A DNA stretch of 20,000 nt from an uncultured virus (IMG/VR IMGVR_UViG_2912869438_000005) (lineage: Duplodnaviria > Heunggongvirae > Uroviricota > Caudoviricetes). Below, one piece after another: positions 3,279 to 9,654 of the stretch (positions within the stretch are counted from its first letter, which is position 1; every line of letters begins with the position of its first letter). A model generated the notes under the pieces. The model made no database searches, was not told where the DNA came from, and saw only the letters and a program-made list of their open reading frames with translations. Location of the stretch: the IMG/VR virus record IMGVR_UViG_2912869438_000005, positions 107,461 to 127,460 of that record; one strand, given 5' to 3'. Position numbers and translations under genes: made by a program.

Positions 3279-3317
3279 ATGTATACACCTGCCTTTCAAG
3301 GTAGAATATGTGTTCCT

Positions 3318-3365
3318 TCACAATATATAGTATACTACCATTCAGGGAAACACAATATACTGTGC
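3318..3365. promoter_or_regulatory. tandem NrdR-box-like palindromes
   Basis: TCACAATATATAGTAT (3318-3333) and ACACAATATACTGTGC (3350-3365), 32 bp apart; both match the consensus acaCwAtATaTwGtg. Confidence 0.7.
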
Positions 3366-3511
3366 TCGAGTTGATGAATGTTCACAGTTTGCTTTAGCTA
3401 GGAACCTGTGGATAGGAGCTAAGCATTTATTAATGATCAGTAAAGGGAGGTGAAGTACAAAGTTATCGTGTATTTAGGTGGAATTACGGATTTATAGGGA
3501 GGTATGATCTC

Positions 3512-3685
3512 ATGGAACTTGAAGCTAGATTGAAAATACACAAAGATTCAGACAATACACATCCACAAGGGAAACTCATCGTAAAACCAAACGGAGAGTA
3601 TGTAAACCTTAAATTTGATGATTATGGTCGTGAAGTTTCAGTATTGGCTGATGAATTAAGAGCCGTGCTTAATATAGGGAAATGA
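3512..3685 (+). CDS. hypothetical protein, 57 aa (MELEARLKIHKDSDNTHPQGKL...)
   Basis: Manual translation; AGGGAGGT RBS. Confidence 0.7.
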   Translation: MELEARLKIHKDSDNTHPQGKLIVKPNGEYVNLKFDDYGREVSVLADELRAVLNIGK

Positions 3686-3698
3686 AAGGAGGAAGATT

Positions 3699-3764
3699 AT
3701 GAGTAACCATTTCAAATTTAAACTGTCAAATATCGAAAATGGTGATTTGATTCTAATAATCTAA
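3699..3764 (+). pseudogene. 21-aa ORF remnant
   Basis: Strong AAGGAGG RBS and ATG, but the frame ends after 21 codons amid two palindromic motifs. Confidence 0.4.
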
Positions 3765-3780
3765 ATAAAATCATAATTTT

Positions 3781-3798
3781 ATATACTAATTAAAAGTA
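3781..3798 (+). promoter_or_regulatory. SPBRE-like operator upstream of yosL
   Basis: ATATACTAATTAAAAGTA, 15/18 identical to the repeat AAACACAAATTAAAAGTA at 13612 and 13708. Confidence 0.5.
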
Positions 3799-3816
3799 AT
3801 CTAAGGAGGAAGAGTT

Positions 3817-4164
3817 ATGGGTGCTGCTAAAAAACTGTATGTGAAAAAAGATCAACTTGTGAGCATTGAAGAAGCTAAAAGTAATATGACAATACATACA
3901 CCGGAAGGCTATTCTGTCCCTGTTGCAGTGGGAGAGCTTGTGGCTACCAATCCAAAAGGAGAGCAATACGTCGTACCTAAAAGCTACAGGAACAAATATG
4001 TCGAAGTCAAACAATTTAAGGATGCTTCATTATACGAGTCAATGGCAAAAGGATATCAAGAAATGGCTGCAATTAATTTAGAAGAGGCAAGCACCGGGTT
4101 TTCTGCGGAAAATCAAGCAGAAGAAATCACAGAGAAATTTGTTTCAGGAAGTATAAACGAATAA
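3817..4164 (+). CDS. yosL: YosL-like MazE (EndoAI) antitoxin mimic, 115 aa
   Basis: C-terminus ESMAKGYQEMAAINLEEASTGFSAENQAEEITEKFVSG resembles the B. subtilis MazE/EndoAI tail (ESMRRGYMEMAKINL...EAE..VERLVSG); immediately upstream of nrdI as in SPbeta. Confidence 0.85.
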   Translation: MGAAKKLYVKKDQLVSIEEAKSNMTIHTPEGYSVPVAVGELVATNPKGEQYVVPKSYRNKYVEVKQFKDASLYESMAKGYQEMAAINLEEASTGFSAENQAEEITEKFVSGSINE

Positions 4165-4565
4165 TGCTTGTTACATATGAAAGCATGACAGGTAATGTTA
4201 GAAGATTTGTAAGAAAGCTTGAGCAAAAAATGCAAATTAAAACTATGGAAATCACTGAGGATTTAAAGGTTGATGAGCCATTCATACATATTACATACAC
4301 AATTAAATTCGGGCAAATTCCTGAAAAAACTCAGAAGTTTATACATAATAATAAAGATTTTTTGTACGGGGTTTGTTCAAGCGGGAATCGAAATTGGGGT
4401 AGCTATTATGCTGCGGCGGCAGATAAACTCTCACAACACTATCAAGTACCAGTACTTCTTAAGTTTGAATTAAGTGGATCAGATTCAGACTTGGACAAGT
4501 TAATACAGGAGGTTAAGTTTATTGACATTAATCAATCAGGTGCCAAAGTGGGTTCAACTGAATAA
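4164..4565 (+). CDS. nrdI: class Ib RNR flavodoxin NrdI
   Basis: YESMTGNVRRF, SSGNRNWG and KFELSG motifs; overlaps the nrdE start. Confidence 0.96.
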   Translation: MLVTYESMTGNVRRFVRKLEQKMQIKTMEITEDLKVDEPFIHITYTIKFGQIPEKTQKFIHNNKDFLYGVCSSGNRNWGSYYAAAADKLSQHYQVPVLLKFELSGSDSDLDKLIQEVKFIDINQSGAKVGSTE

Positions 4566-5247
4566 CGAAATTATGATTCAAAAAGACGGGAAGTTTCAAT
4601 TCGAGAAGGACAGGGAAGCTGTACACAGTTATTTTGTTGACTATGTTAATCAAAACACTGTCTTCTTTCACGATCTCAAAGAAAAACTGGACTATCTTTT
4701 AGAGAATGATTATTACGAAGAAGAGTTTTTAAGCAAATATACCTTTGCACAGATTAAAGAAGTGTTCAAATTGGCGTATAGCTTCAAATTCAGATTCCCT
4801 TCATTCATGAGTGCATTCAAGTTTTACAATGACTATGCCTTGAAGACAAACGATAAAACGAAAATTCTTGAACGATATGAAGATCGAGTGAGTATTGTTG
4901 CTTTGTTTTTCGCCAATGGAGATGCTGAAAAAGCAAAAGAATTCACTTCACTTATGATGAAACAGGAATATCAACCATCAACACCTACTTTTCTTAATGC
5001 AGGACGAAAAAGAAGAGGTGAAATGGTTAGCTGCTTCTTACTCGAAGTTAATGATTCATTGAATGACATTTCTAGAGCAGTTGATATTTCAATGCAGTTA
5101 TCTAAACTCGGAGGCGGAGTCGCGCTTAATTTAAGCAAGATTAGAGCAAAGGGAGAACCAATTAAAGACGTCGAAAATGCCACTAAAGGCGTTGTAGGTG
5201 TAATGAAGCTGCTTGACAACGCGTTCCGCTATGCAGATCAAATGGGT
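4522..5247 (+). CDS. nrdE: ribonucleotide reductase class Ib alpha subunit, exon 1
   Basis: KWVQLNNEIM, FPSFMSAFKFY, QPSTPTFLNAG, SCFLL; ends ...YADQMG at the intron. Confidence 0.96.
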
Positions 5248-5496
5248 TAATTTGGCCCCTTTCGTCAGTAATGGCGATCGAAAACCTCTTTAATTGCTGG
5301 GAACTCCTTATAGGACAATCAGCAGCGAAGCCTCATTCGAGGAACGTTCAACGACTAGGCAAAAGCCGTAGGCTACAAGCGATTGGTAGTCGAAACTGGA
5401 GGCATCCCAATGGGATGAAGATATAGTCTAATCTTCGTGGTAACATGAAGCTGCCGAAAGGCGGGGCGTGTGTAGCGAACACGTCCGAATAGTCTG
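5248..5496 (+). mobile_element. group I self-splicing intron (249 nt, no ORF) in nrdE
   Basis: 5' exon ends in U (GGU) and the intron ends in G; removal restores ADQMG|QRQGSGAAYL; core elements AAUUGCUGGGAA (P), AAUCAGCAG (Q), GUUCAACGACUA (R), AAGAUAUAGUCU (S); P1 GGGU/GCCC and P10 UUUG/CAAA pairings. Confidence 0.95.
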
Positions 5497-8031
5497 CAAA
5501 GACAAGGGTCAGGAGCTGCTTATCTTAACGTATTTCACCCGGACATCAACGATTTCCTTGATACGAAAAAAATCTCAGCAGATGAGGATGTTAGGGCAAA
5601 AACATTATCAATTGGTGTAGTTATTCCAGATAAATTTATTGAGCTTGCTAGGGAAGATAAAGACTTCTACATGTTCTATCCTTATTCAGTTTATAAGGAA
5701 TACGGGCAACATTTAGACGAAATGGATATTGCAAAAATGTATGATGAACTGGTCGAAAACCCAAATGTCAGAAAGAAAAAAGCGAATGCTCGTAAACTAT
5801 TAGAAAAGCTTGCAATCTTACGATCAGAATCGGGTTATCCTTACCTGATGTTTGCCGACAATGTAAACCGATTCCACGCTAACAGTCATGTTTCGAAGGT
5901 TAAATTTTCTAACTTGTGTGTGACGGGAGATACTCTTCTTTTAACCGAAAATGGGTACGAAAAAGCCTCAGATCTTTATAAAAGTCAAAAAGATTTAAGG
6001 GTCGTTATTGACAATCGGACAAAACGGTTTGACAAGGATTGTAAAGGGACTTCAATTGTGAATGCGATACCTATGCAGCTAACTAAAAAGGACGCAGGTG
6101 TTTTTAAAGTTAAAACTAAGCAAGGATTTGAAATCAGAGCAACAGAGTGGCACAAGTTTTATGTTAAACGAAATAACGAAATACAGAAACTTCAGCTTAA
6201 CCAACTTGTTCCGGGGGACAAACTACTGATTCAGTCAGGTGAAGGGGCATATGGGAATATTCATGAACCTGATCTCGCATATATCATGGGGATTATAGCT
6301 GGGGATGGAACCATAACAGATAAGACAGCGAAGATTTATTTATATGACAATAAAAAGGTGTTGGAACAAAAGGTTAAAGAGAGTGTTCATCTTGTAATTA
6401 ATAGACATAAAATTAATCGTGTTTATAAGCACAACACTTCTTTTACTCCAAAATTTAATGCTGCTGATCCAGAGAAACAAGATTTATTATTTATGTCTAG
6501 TACAGTGCTCTTTGACATTTTAAATAAATATGGAATGACAAAAGATACAAAAACAAGAGTTCCAGAGTTCTTATATCAAGCTGACAAGGAAACACAAGCA
6601 GCTTATTTGTCTGGATTGTTTCAAACGGATGGTTGTGTAAATGCCAATCATAAAGCGAAGGCACTAACAATTGAATTAACATCAGTTGATTTTGAGAGTT
6701 TGCAAGATGTGCAAAAGTTACTCATTAATATGGGAGTATATACAACCATTTATACCAATAACAAACGCTCACAGGAGCTTCTCCCTGATGGCCGGGGCGG
6801 TTCCAAATTATACAAAGTTAAACCAACTCACAAGCTTAGTATTCAGGACAGAGCGTCGAGAGAATTGTTCATGAGCATTGTTAATTTGAAAGAATATGAT
6901 AAGTACAAATTCAACATGTTGACTGAAACATTGCAAGCAAAATCACGAAAGCCAAAACATGATTTCACAGCCGAAATTATCAGCATTGAAAAAGATGGGG
7001 TAGAGGATGTCTATGACACAACACAAGAAGATTATCATTCTCTAATTTTTAATGGAATTGTAACTGGTAACTGTTCAGAAGTCCTTCAGGCTTCCCAAGT
7101 ATCGTCTTACACCGATTACGGAGAAGAGGACGAAATTGGCTTGGACATTTCATGTAATCTAGGCTCGATTAATATCTTCAACGTCATGAAGAACGATTCA
7201 ATTAAGAATACAGTTAAATTAGCTATTGATGCATTGACTCATGTATCGAATAAAACCAATATTACAAATGCTCCAGCAGTTGCTAAGGCAAATAAGCTTA
7301 TGAGGTCAGTTGGGCTTGGAGCAATGAATCTGCACGGTTTCTTAGCTCAAAATGGTATTGCCTACGAAAGTGAGGAAGCGAGGGACTTCGCGAACACTTT
7401 CTTTATGATGATGAACTTTTATTCTCTTGAGCGTTCAATGGAAATCGCCAAAGAAGCCGGGGAAACATATTACCAGTTTGAAGGCTCTACATACAAATCA
7501 GGTGAATATTTCAAGAAATACGAAGAACAAAGCTTTAGTCCAAAGTTTGAAAAGGTAAAAAAACTGTTTGGGCAACAGCATATTCCAACAATTGAAGATT
7601 GGAAGCAGCTTAAACAAGCTGTGATGAAGTATGGCTTATATCATTCTTATAGACAAGCAATAGCTCCTACAGGAAGCATCTCATATGTTCAATCCTCAAC
7701 AGCTGGTGTCATGCCGATCATGGAGCGGATTGAAGAAAGAACATACGGCAACTCCAAGACGTATTATCCGATGCCTGGACTTGCGCCGAGCAACTGGTTC
7801 TACTATAAAGAAGCGTATGATATGGACATGTTCAGAGTTGTCGACATGATCTCGACGATTCAGCAGCACGTTGACCAAGGCATAAGCTTTACATTGTTCC
7901 TGAAAGATACAATGACGACACGCGATCTGAACCGAATTGACTTGTACGCTCATCACAAAGGGATCAAGACGTTGTACTATGCGCGGACAAAAGACACGGG
8001 GCAGGAAGGCTGCCTATCATGTGTGGTTTAA
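5497..8031 (+). CDS. nrdE: ribonucleotide reductase class Ib alpha subunit, exon 2 (contains intein)
   Basis: In frame with ORF 5671..8031; SNL|C-SE active site split by the intein; CNLGS, APTGSIS, KTLYY, C-terminal CLSC; precursor 1086 aa, mature 701 aa. Confidence 0.96.
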   Translation, partial: QRQGSGAAYLNVFHPDINDFLDTKKISADEDVRAKTLSIGVVIPDKFIELAREDKDFYMFYPYSVYKEYGQHLDEMDIAKMYDELVENPNVRKKKANARKLLEKLAILRSESGYPYLMFADNVNRFHANSHVSKVKFSNLCVTGDTLLLTENGYEKASDLYKSQKDLRVVIDNRTKRFDKDCKGTSIVNAIPMQLTKKDAGVFKVKTKQGFEIRATEWHKFYVKRNNEIQKLQLNQLVPGDKLLIQSGEGAYGNIHEPDLAYIMGIIAGDGTITDKTAKIYLYDNKKVLEQKVKESVHLVINRHKINRVYKHNTSFTPKFNAADPEKQDLLFMSSTVLFDILNKYGMTKDTKTRVPEFLYQADKETQAAYLSGLFQTDGCVNANHKAKALTIELTSVDFESLQDVQKLLINMGVYTTIYTNNKRSQELLPDGRGGSKLYKVKPTHKLSIQDRASRELFMSIVNLKEYDKYKFNMLTETLQAKSRKPKHDFTAEIISIEKDGVEDVYDTTQEDYHSLIFNGIVTGNCSEVLQASQVSSYTDYGEEDEIGLDISCNLGSINIFNVMKNDSIKNTVKLAIDALTHVSNKTNITNAPAVAKANKLMRSVGLGAMNLHGFLAQNGIAYESEEARDFANTFFMMMNFYSLERSMEIAKEAGETYYQFEGSTYKSGEYFKKYEEQSFSPKFEKVKKLFGQQHIPTIEDWKQLKQAVMKYGLYHSYRQAIAPTGSISYVQSSTAGVMPIMERIEERTYGNSKTYYPMPGLAPSNWFYYKEAYDMDMFRVVDMISTIQQHVDQGISFTLFLKDTMTTRDLNRIDLYAHHKGIKTLYYARTKDTGQEGCLSCVV
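5917..7071 (+). mobile_element. intein (385 aa) with LAGLIDADG homing endonuclease
   Basis: Starts CVTGDTLLLT; block B IRATEWHKF; LAGLIDADG motifs IMGIIAGDG and LSGLFQTDG; block F/G VYDTTQEDYHSLIFNGIVTGN|C; the +1 residue is the catalytic thiyl Cys. Confidence 0.96.
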
Positions 8032-8255
8032 ATGTGAGTTATCAGATACATTGTGCGCAAGGGAGCAAGGTAAGGTGCCTATACATAGATGTGTTTAGAT
8101 TTCGCATCCTTACAGTTTATAGTGACACGGAGTGGTACACAAAAGGAAAAACAAGAAAAGTTCCAGTGTGGATCAGCGATAATGGACTCTTCTTTTACAG
8201 GTTAGCTATCCGGATAGGGATTCCAAAAACAAAAAGGAGGTGTTTTGATGATTAA
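8019..8255 (+). CDS. hypothetical basic protein, ~75 aa
   Basis: ORF overlapping the nrdE stop and the next start; start uncertain (8019 or GTG 8034), RBS weak. Confidence 0.5.
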   Translation: MCGLNVSYQIHCAQGSKVRCLYIDVFRFRILTVYSDTEWYTKGKTRKVPVWISDNGLFFYRLAIRIGIPKTKRRCFDD

Positions 8256-8496
8256 TTTTACAAGCAAAGTTTTAGAAATTGCTACGCATTTTTCAGTGTT
8301 TTTAATTGTATTTTTAGGTTGTTTAACTACCGTAATCATTCTCTTATGTCCAATTTGGCTACTGTTAAACAACATATTATACAAACGGACAAAAGCGTCT
8401 ATTTATTTTGTATCTTACATTAAAAACAGACATGCGTTTATGGAGTGGAAGAAAGAGAAAAAGACCAAGGTCTATAAGCCATCAATTAAAAAATAA
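8245..8496 (+). CDS. small membrane protein, 83 aa
   Basis: AAGGAGGTG RBS; hydrophobic stretch FSVFLIVFLGCLTTVIILLCPIWLLL; basic tail. Confidence 0.78.
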   Translation: MMINFTSKVLEIATHFSVFLIVFLGCLTTVIILLCPIWLLLNNILYKRTKASIYFVSYIKNRHAFMEWKKEKKTKVYKPSIKK

Positions 8497-8508
8497 AGAG
8501 GTGCAGAT

Positions 8509-8682
8509 GTGCGGAAGGTTAAAATCGAGGGCTACGTGATTTACAACGAGGACGAATTAATTCAAGGAACGTGTGTGACGCATGAAATCGATCATTGGTT
8601 ATTCAACGAAGATATTCCTCGCGAATGGTCTTTCAGTGCTGTATCAGACGAGGAAGTAGATTATGACGAGGAGGACGAATAA
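8509..8682 (+). CDS. acidic hypothetical protein, 57 aa (MRKVKIEGYVIYNEDELIQG...DYDEEDE)
   Basis: Manual translation; AGAGGTG RBS, GTG start; its TAA abuts the nrdF TTG. Confidence 0.72.
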   Translation: MRKVKIEGYVIYNEDELIQGTCVTHEIDHWLFNEDIPREWSFSAVSDEEVDYDEEDE

Positions 8683-9654
8683 TTGACGCAATATACAGCG
8701 GCCAACTGGTCGCAGCACGAAGACGGATTCACACAAATGTTTTATGAACAGAACGTTAAGCAGTTTTGGCTCCCTGAAGAGATCGCACTTAACGGAGATT
8801 TGCTTACATGGGAATACTTAGGGAAAGATGAACAAGATACATATATGAAAGTGTTGGCCGGATTAACCTTACTAGACACAGAACAAGGGAATACTGGTAT
8901 GCCTACAATCGCTGAGCATGTGAAAGGGCATCAGCGCAAAGCCGTCCTGAATTTCATGGCGATGATGGAGAACGCAGTCCACGCTAAGTCATACAGCAAT
9001 ATCTTTCTCACTTTAGCTCAGATGGAAACAATTAATGAAGTCTTTGAATGGGTTAAAAACAATAAGTATCTGCAGAAGAAAGCAAATATTATTGTTTCTG
9101 TATACAAACAAATTAAAAGTGATAATGAATTGTTGTTGTATAAAGGAATGGTTGCATCTGTATTGCTTGAAAGCTTCCTGTTTTATTCAGGATTTTATTA
9201 TCCATTGTATTTTTATGGTCAGGGGAAGTTAATGAACAGCGGAGAAATCATTAATTTGATAATTCGTGACGAGGCACTTCACGGTGTATACACAGGATTG
9301 TTGGCTCAGGAAATCTATAATAAACAAACTGAAATCAAGAAAAAAGAATTGTATGAATGGGTTATTAACTTGCTGCTCGATCTATATGAAAATGAGCTTG
9401 AGTATACCGAAGATGTATATGATCAAGTTGGGCTAACTCATGATGTAAAAAAGTTTATACGATATAACGCAAATAAAGCCTTAAATAATTTGGGCTTCGA
9501 CCATTATTTTTATGAAGAAGAAATTAACCCAGTTGTGTTGAACGGATTGAGTACAAAAACTAAATCTATGGACTTCTTTAGTCAAAAGGGGAATTCTTAC
9601 AGGAAGGCTACTGCTGAAGCCTTAAAAGATGAGGATTTTTACTTTGGGGATTGA
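8683..9654 (+). CDS. nrdF: ribonucleotide reductase class Ib beta subunit, uninterrupted
   Basis: [40 protein letters not shown] metal ligands and radical Tyr. Confidence 0.97.

Follow-up and report, generated by a model that had tools for sequence, protein, structure and literature searches.

A YosL orthologue of an SPbeta-like Bacillus provirus, with a MazE-mimic tail and a predicted beta-barrel most likely related to phage PGDYG-like modules

The stretch of DNA analysed here (the window, 20,000 nucleotides) is the end of the 127,460-bp provirus record IMGVR_UViG_2912869438_000005 of IMG/VR and covers positions 107,461 to 127,460 of that record. The provirus (127 kb) is an SPbeta-like temperate Bacillus phage, and an open reading frame (ORF) at 3817..4164 on the + strand of the window encodes a 115-aa protein that is almost certainly an orthologue of YosL bearing a C-terminal tail that mimics the antitoxin MazE. 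An earlier note on this DNA had described the ORF by the strings LYVKK, IHTPEG, GELVATNPKGEQY and KYVEV, all of which are found in its translation. The gene and its parts are laid out as follows.

3803..3809, + strand: Shine-Dalgarno sequence AAGGAGG, 7 nt from the yosL ATG (sequence inspection).
3817..4164, + strand: yosL orthologue, with an ATG start and 115 codons plus TAA (ORF list).
3832..4008, + strand: core of the yosL N-terminal domain, residues 6-64; predicted six-stranded SH3-like beta-barrel with one short helix, most likely a remote PGDYG-like (phrog_419-type) module.
4024..4143, + strand: yosL C-terminal helix, residues 70-109; putative MazE/AimX-like MazF-binding tail, judged from sequence, with a net charge of about -7.
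4042..4065, + strand: contact motif M76-A-K-G-Y80-Q-E82-M83, aligned with 8anv_C and equivalent to AimX M14, Y18, E20 and M21.
4164..4565, + strand: nrdI (ORF list and sequence), its ATG having one base in common with the yosL stop (TAATG).

The identity of the gene is carried by whole-length matches. The protein matches phrog_21769 at E 1.7e-58 over positions 1-115 of the 115-position profile, and a tblastn search of 50,697 phage records returned 24 matches, all in Bacillus phages, at 40-47% identity and each with at least 80% query coverage. The yosL gene of SPBc2 and phi3T_165 are among these 24, and the five records that were opened are Spbetavirus. The nearest clusters in the protein collection come from the same lineage plus Bacillus sonorensis and B. 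swezeyi, under the NCBI name 'antitoxin EndoAI', and a Bacillus glycinifermentans contig carries a yosL copy whose N-terminal domain is 100% identical. Together with the position of the gene before nrdI-nrdE, these matches bear out the YosL identity that had been proposed from the sequence. PF27083, precomputed for the YosL cluster (P0001), may already cover part of the protein. Residues 1-3, disordered in the model, read M-G-A in all 11 aligned sequences and in most loci, four loci having M-V-A instead. Two YosL variants of 87 aa (P0008) and 147 aa (P0002) begin with a normal N-terminal domain, run into an unrelated tail beyond about residue 55 or 103, respectively or otherwise not assigned, and look like frameshifted copies or assembly errors. 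An SPbeta-type yosL-nrdI pair on a contig labelled Streptomyces sp. (L049) is probably a mislabelled or contaminated assembly.

The C-terminal part resembles the segment with which antitoxins grip MazF. A phmmer search of PDB sequences matched residues 70-108 to AimX (8anv_C, 'arbitrium putative lysogeny regulator'; E 1.4e-4) and aligned the protein collinearly over residues 20-111 with the B. subtilis antitoxin EndoAI/MazE (4me7_E; E 1.3e-3), with nearly all identities to 4me7_E lying beyond residue 70. NCBIfam antitoxMazE_Staph (NF041459) matches residues 65-110 at E 5.5e-4, scoring 20 bits against a cut-off of 108. When one extra residue at the chain start of 8ANV is allowed for, the AimX residues reported to contact MazF (M14, Y18, E20 and M21; PMC10769878) fall on M76, Y80, E82 and M83, which are invariant across the 11 aligned YosL sequences. 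The full-length AlphaFold2 (AF2) model renders residues 70-109 as one long helix with a low predicted local distance difference test score (pLDDT), as expected because such a segment folds on its partner. The MazE-type MazF-binding tail described in the earlier note is thus upheld by both PDB matches and by the invariant contact residues.

Binding and blocking of MazF by YosL is known from print and not new, and the claim that YosL counters MazF had already been published for the SPbeta and phi3T proteins (PMC10769878). According to the same source, YosL of phi3T and SPbeta binds MazF with an affinity above that of AimX or MazE, and a phi3T aimX/yosL double mutant was back to wild-type titre once mazF was deleted in both donor and recipient. 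The paper also states that YosL does not bind phi3T_93, for which its modelling blames clashes with the YosL N-terminal domain. As reported in PMC10516654, yosL null mutants of SPbeta c2 show no lysis on induction. The acidic tail helix (~70-109) would copy the MazF-binding segment of MazE and sit in the dimer groove of MazF (EndoA), and in this way would block the MazF RNase and let the lytic cycle proceed, a course that is experimental for the SPbeta and phi3T orthologues and that we infer by analogy for the present one. A search of the 127-kb provirus for AimX returned YosL itself as the sole match and the only ORF with a MazE tail; YosL is probably the only MazF mimic of the present phage, as in SPbeta. 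The arbitrium region lies outside the window, at 72665-78293 of the provirus, with AimR (39% identity) and homologues of a YopP-like integrase, YopQ and YopR in the phi3T order.

The N-terminal half is of another kind. When modelled alone with AF2 (pLDDT 80.4; predicted template modelling score, pTM, 0.64), it gives six beta-strands and one short helix over residues 6-63, so that the domain (residues 6-64) is predicted to be an all-beta SH3-like barrel rather than a ribbon-helix-helix. The N-terminal DNA-binding dimerisation domain of B. subtilis MazE is a ribbon-helix-helix. Comparison of the full-length model with PDB folds was uninformative, the list being filled by the long helix. A Pfam match of the protein to PBCV_basic_adap at E 0.49 was ignored.

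The best clue to the origin of the barrel comes from a set of PGDYG-like proteins assembled without reference to YosL. The set holds 81 members, namely 11 annotated phage genes, whose products match phrog_419 at E values from 1e-7 (SH1 ORF9) to 1e-39, and 70 unique IMG/VR proteins of 55-130 aa drawn from 80 loci, these being the best 80 of at least 572 relatives. Ten loci were dropped for length or duplication, and Brocalys_89 was dropped as unrelated. A hidden Markov model (HMM) built from the 81 members was run over all stop-to-stop ORFs of at least 30 aa in the provirus (n = 1871) and hit YosL only (E 2.4e-4, 17.6 bits; the next ORF reached 2.5), aligning model positions 18-81 with residues 4-67. 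In a profile-profile comparison by hhalign, 39 unique YosL N-domains aligned with the 81-member family at a score of 23.1 (P 0.0011, 45 columns, probability 20%). When the columns of the YosL alignment were permuted 200 times, no permutation reached that score (mean 10.7, standard deviation 2.5, maximum 18.6).

Structure comparison leads to the same family. In a Foldseek search of BFVD, ranks 3 and 4 are each named 'PGDYG protein' (TMq 0.64, root-mean-square deviation 2.9, 58 columns, 28% identity, prob 1.00, E 0.017-0.028), rank 9 is SH1 virus ORF9, a phrog_419 protein at the edge of PF14083, and rank 37 is from Klebsiella phage LASTA. A tblastn search that started from P0014, a true PF14083 protein, arrived independently at the SH1 ORF9 and LASTA proteins. 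The hhalign register (9-54) and the 57-67 columns of Foldseek are consistent with the whole-domain register of the HMM. Residues 1-69 were further compared by phmmer with 1.84 billion representatives, which gave 11 hits. Five of these are the YosL family, and three others are Pfam-assigned PF14083 proteins, namely P0005 (19 stretches, 309.8 bits), P0012 and P0014. For P0012, residues 541-585 align by eye with the YosL N-domain clearly over the whole unit, and SpT5_012 matches positions 10-55 of the YosL PHROG profile with an E-value of 0.09. The PGDYG motif P-G-D-Y/W-I-I-x-G...G-E-x-Y-P corresponds in YosL to V-G-E-L-V-A-T-N-P-K-G-E-Q-Y-V, which retains the Gly, the acidic residue, the Thr and G-E-x-Y but not the aromatic residue or the second Gly. 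The PGDYG-like resemblance noted at the outset therefore holds as a remote relationship on the HMM and hhalign statistics, and the Foldseek comparison that had been suggested for it placed PGDYG proteins among the top four viral folds. We consider it probable that the barrel is homologous to the PGDYG-like family, most likely as a diverged single unit of this common phage module (phrog_419; edge of PF14083). The largest phmmer hit, P0005 (3743 aa), strings its 19 PGDYG stretches together as two alternating unit types and also carries an annexin repeat and a C-terminal AAA_33/zeta-toxin-like kinase domain.

Barrel and tail travel together. Across 44 related loci (42 viral contigs and 2 genome contigs), both parts lie in one ORF of 108-118 aa without exception, and the provirus holds no stand-alone copy of either elsewhere (next hit at E 0.29 for the N-domain HMM and E 1 for the tail HMM). 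In pairwise comparisons the N-domains average an identity of 0.63 and the tails one of 0.60. Purifying selection acts on the N-domain, and since the median pairwise ratio of nonsynonymous to synonymous substitution rates (dN/dS) is 0.13 for the N-domain (234 pairs) and 0.27 for the tail (421 pairs), the barrel is constrained at least as much as the tail. No phi3T_93 homologue was found in the provirus (best E 0.11), and avoidance of phi3T_93 therefore cannot explain the retention of the barrel.

Taken together, the explanation we favour, with some confidence, is that YosL combines a MazE-mimic tail with a PGDYG-like barrel that serves inside the MazF pathway. The barrel would replace the DNA-binding dimerisation domain of MazE as the folded body of the antitoxin, without binding DNA, and may stabilise a tail that would be disordered by itself and raise its affinity or valency. 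That the barrel acts only within the MazF axis is a narrower statement, to which we give slightly less than an even chance. It has to be weighed against the report that overexpressed phi3T yosL stopped cell growth (PMC10769878), an arrest that is not obviously due to loss of MazF and that hints at a second activity.

Such an activity is the substance of a serious alternative, in which YosL has another function besides blocking MazF, the N-domain binding a further target in host or phage. The strong constraint on the N-domain and its retention in 44 of 44 loci would fit this idea, as would the joining of PGDYG-like modules to other functional parts (phrog_4159-type proteins and the 3743-aa P0005). 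The growth arrest seen with phi3T yosL also speaks for it, the corresponding account in PMC10769878 reporting no such effect for aimX expressed in recipients, and without a phi3T_93 homologue in this provirus steric avoidance is not a reason for keeping the barrel. However, deletion of mazF in donor and recipient fully rescues the phi3T double mutant, so that no MazF-independent function is needed there (PMC10769878), the SPbeta protein is reported to be free of toxicity (PMC10516654), and no partner is known. On this balance a second target is possible but unlikely.

A slightly less likely alternative concerns descent rather than function, namely that the N-domain is a generic small beta-barrel whose likeness to PGDYG proteins arose by chance or convergence. 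Several results weigh against homology and lend themselves to this reading. Neither PF14083 against YosL nor phrog_419 against residues 1-69 gave a report at E<=10, the hhalign probability is modest (20% with 81 sequences, 7% with 11), and YosL has the PGDYG motif in degenerate form (V-G-E-L-V-A-T). Taken one at a time, repeat units reach no more than 14.6-16.5 bits with the YosL profile, the large E-values of the search of 1.84 billion representatives are sums over repeats, and that search also returned two PASTA-repeat proteins, false positives that show how repeats inflate scores. In the Protein Atlas, the top feature score was 0.82 and the PGDYG cluster stood at rank 13 with 0.80, which is a lead only. 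Set against these uniformly modest statistics are the agreement of HMM, hhalign and Foldseek on a whole-domain register, the standing of YosL as sole hit among 1871 ORFs with a score that 0 of 200 permutations reach, and the PGDYG name borne by the best viral fold matches at 24-28% identity. The silence of PF14083 is partly explained because the Pfam model begins at the PGDYG motif. Undoubted short members of the family (62-93 aa) match only its first 38 positions and score 15-25 bits against a cut-off of 27, and because phrog_419 reaches such proteins down to 1e-39, Pfam under-counts the family. We therefore retain the view that the barrel is a remote PGDYG relative.

Some search results were set aside along the way. 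The two PASTA proteins (P0006 and P0010) fall to -13.7 and 8.9 bits when scored with the profile of the YosL family and were taken as summed weak repeat matches, and P0013, a 651-aa repeat protein, gave weak partial matches (9.3 bits). An hhalign run with repeat units picked through YosL reached a probability of 91% (P 1e-6) and was not used as evidence because the units had been selected by their likeness to YosL. Word-index searches with the N-domain alone found the YosL family only, and a search with P0012 residues 535-603 against shorter proteins gave no match.

A bolder conception of the barrel is that the PGDYG-like fold is a portable sensing or targeting module set on varied counter-defence payloads, such as the MazE tail and MazG-type pyrophosphohydrolases. 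In this connection, 9 of the 11 annotated phage proteins also match positions 1-83 of phrog_4159 'nucleotide pyrophosphohydrolase'. We regard the conception as quite unlikely. Were it true, the barrel of YosL would have as its ligand either a small molecule or a host factor besides MazF, and MazF would be blocked only under certain conditions or alongside a further anti-defence activity. With YosL, a family that counts at least 572 relatives among viral contigs would also gain its first member open to experiment. Sequence searches found no member of the PGDYG-like family with a known function or a solved structure, and no paper in the limited collection that was searched in full text names the PGDYG family or PF14083.

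The earlier note went further in one respect, describing a fusion with a PGDYG- and sponge-like N-terminal domain and tying PGDYG proteins to the cyclic-nucleotide sponge Acb4. Of that description the PGDYG-like part stands, as a remote relationship, and the Acb4-type sponge part falls. Acb4 is SPO1 gp1.3, a 96-aa protein of Pfam family PF13876 with a solved structure (PDB 9E4W; bioRxiv 10.1101/2024.12.30.630793). Its fold, alpha/beta and dsRBM-like, runs through three helices, three antiparallel strands and two more helices; the protein assembles as a tetramer and is a binder of 3'3'-cGAMP (10.1101/2024.12.30.630793). PF13876 locates Acb4 in SPO1 at 34.9 bits, which was confirmed against 9e4w_A (E 5e-59), and finds no match at E<=10 in the provirus or in YosL. 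With hhalign, the YosL N-domain alignment met Acb4 in one column (P 0.43) and the 81-member PGDYG-like family gave P 0.69. The Acb4 chain is also absent among the 50 matches listed in each of two PDB fold searches, which by itself is no proof. Kinship of the N-domain with Acb4 was rejected on the PF13876 null, the two hhalign values and the different fold (six strands, one helix), and the link between PGDYG proteins and Acb4 was accordingly mistaken. The ideas of a protein with two functions and of an antitoxin gated by a nucleotide consequently have no evidence from this analysis behind them.

Binding of a cyclic nucleotide by the N-domain, whether as a sponge or as a ligand switch gating the antitoxin, is very improbable. 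The presence of related modules at the front of phage MazG-type pyrophosphohydrolases (phrog_4159) and a nicotinate ribosyltransferase name at BFVD rank 47 could be read in its favour. Against it, the proposed bridge, Acb4, is unrelated in both family and fold, and no nucleotide-binding family in Pfam, PHROG or NCBIfam matches the protein. The net charge of the N-domain is also not conserved (mean -0.4, range -3 to +6, 39 sequences); published sponge screens seek positively charged pockets (10.1101/2025.07.12.664507).

A ribbon-helix-helix DNA-binding domain, put forward for the N-terminal half in a bioinformatic statement in PMC10516654, is scarcely credible, since the phmmer alignment to MazE, although collinear over residues 20-111, is nearly without identities before residue 70, two AF2 runs give strands only through residues 6-53, and no ribbon-helix-helix family in Pfam matches the protein at E<=10, all of which agrees with the initial judgement that this is not the DNA-binding domain of MazE.

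The surroundings of yosL are those of a phage ribonucleotide reductase operon. The gene nrdI lies directly 3' of yosL in 44 of 44 related loci and in all five annotated phage records opened, and translational coupling of the two is suggested because the nrdI ATG and the yosL stop have one base in common. Upstream lies a small variable ORF that is conserved in only 9 of the 44 loci. With these two genes as neighbours, a mazF toxin gene is not adjacent to yosL. The layout yosL-nrdI-nrdE, intron and intein included, matches the bnrdI-bnrdE region of SPBc2. In the window, nrdE (4522-5250 and 5671-8031, + strand) is split by a group I intron at 5229-5450 (Rfam RF00028, 94.4 bits), and the ORF of its second exon (786 aa) contains an intein-like insert (C-V-T-G-D-T-L-L ... 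H-N-C), of the kind annotated in bnrdE of SPBc2. At the expected place of nrdF (8019-9654, + strand) are three consecutive ORFs, 8019-8255, 8245-8496 and 8683-9654, which may be another interrupted gene. A scan of 3300-4300 for promoters and terminators was uninformative, with 4 promoter-like sites where 3.7 are expected and no terminator.

As a gene, this is an ordinary find, a new orthologue of a published protein, and the assignment of its N-domain is a modest new annotation. The likely identity of the N-terminal half is the new part, and it contradicts the ribbon-helix-helix annotation in print. The sections of the two YosL papers at hand (PMC10769878 and PMC10516654) do not assign the domain to the PGDYG family. 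The assignment links a protein of genetically tractable B. subtilis phages, one with clear phenotypes, to a huge orphan family of phage domains. Should the barrel add affinity, valency or a second target, YosL would offer a natural entry point to the function of the PGDYG-like module.

Among known systems, Acb4 of SPO1 resembles YosL in being a small counter-defence protein of Bacillus phages. The two differ in fold, and neither by sequence nor by profile does Acb4 resemble YosL or the PGDYG-like family. The PGDYG-like proteins (phrog_419, phrog_1810, phrog_4502; PF14083) share with YosL a predicted barrel and the order of conserved turns, namely a basic first strand, I-x-T-x-E-G, G-D/E-x-I/V-x-T, G-E-x-Y and aromatic-x3-Y. 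YosL differs from them in lacking the motif aromatic and the P-C-K-P-D-I-F stretch, and curated models miss it.

YosL of SPbeta and phi3T is the closest counterpart, alike in its two-domain layout, its length, its place before nrdI-nrdE and its invariant MazF-contact residues, at 40-47% identity; the present orthologue has diverged from them and belongs to a phage of the B. glycinifermentans / sonorensis group. Unlike phi3T, this provirus has AimR without an AimX-like peptide and without a phi3T_93 homologue. With MazE (4ME7) and AimX (8ANV), YosL has in common a C-terminal helix bearing the pattern M-x3-Y-x-E-M, the element by which those two fill the MazF dimer groove. MazE carries an N-terminal DNA-binding dimerisation domain and neighbours mazF, whereas YosL carries a predicted beta-barrel and sits in a phage ribonucleotide reductase operon. 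AimX is a bare peptide, whereas the YosL tail is set on that barrel.
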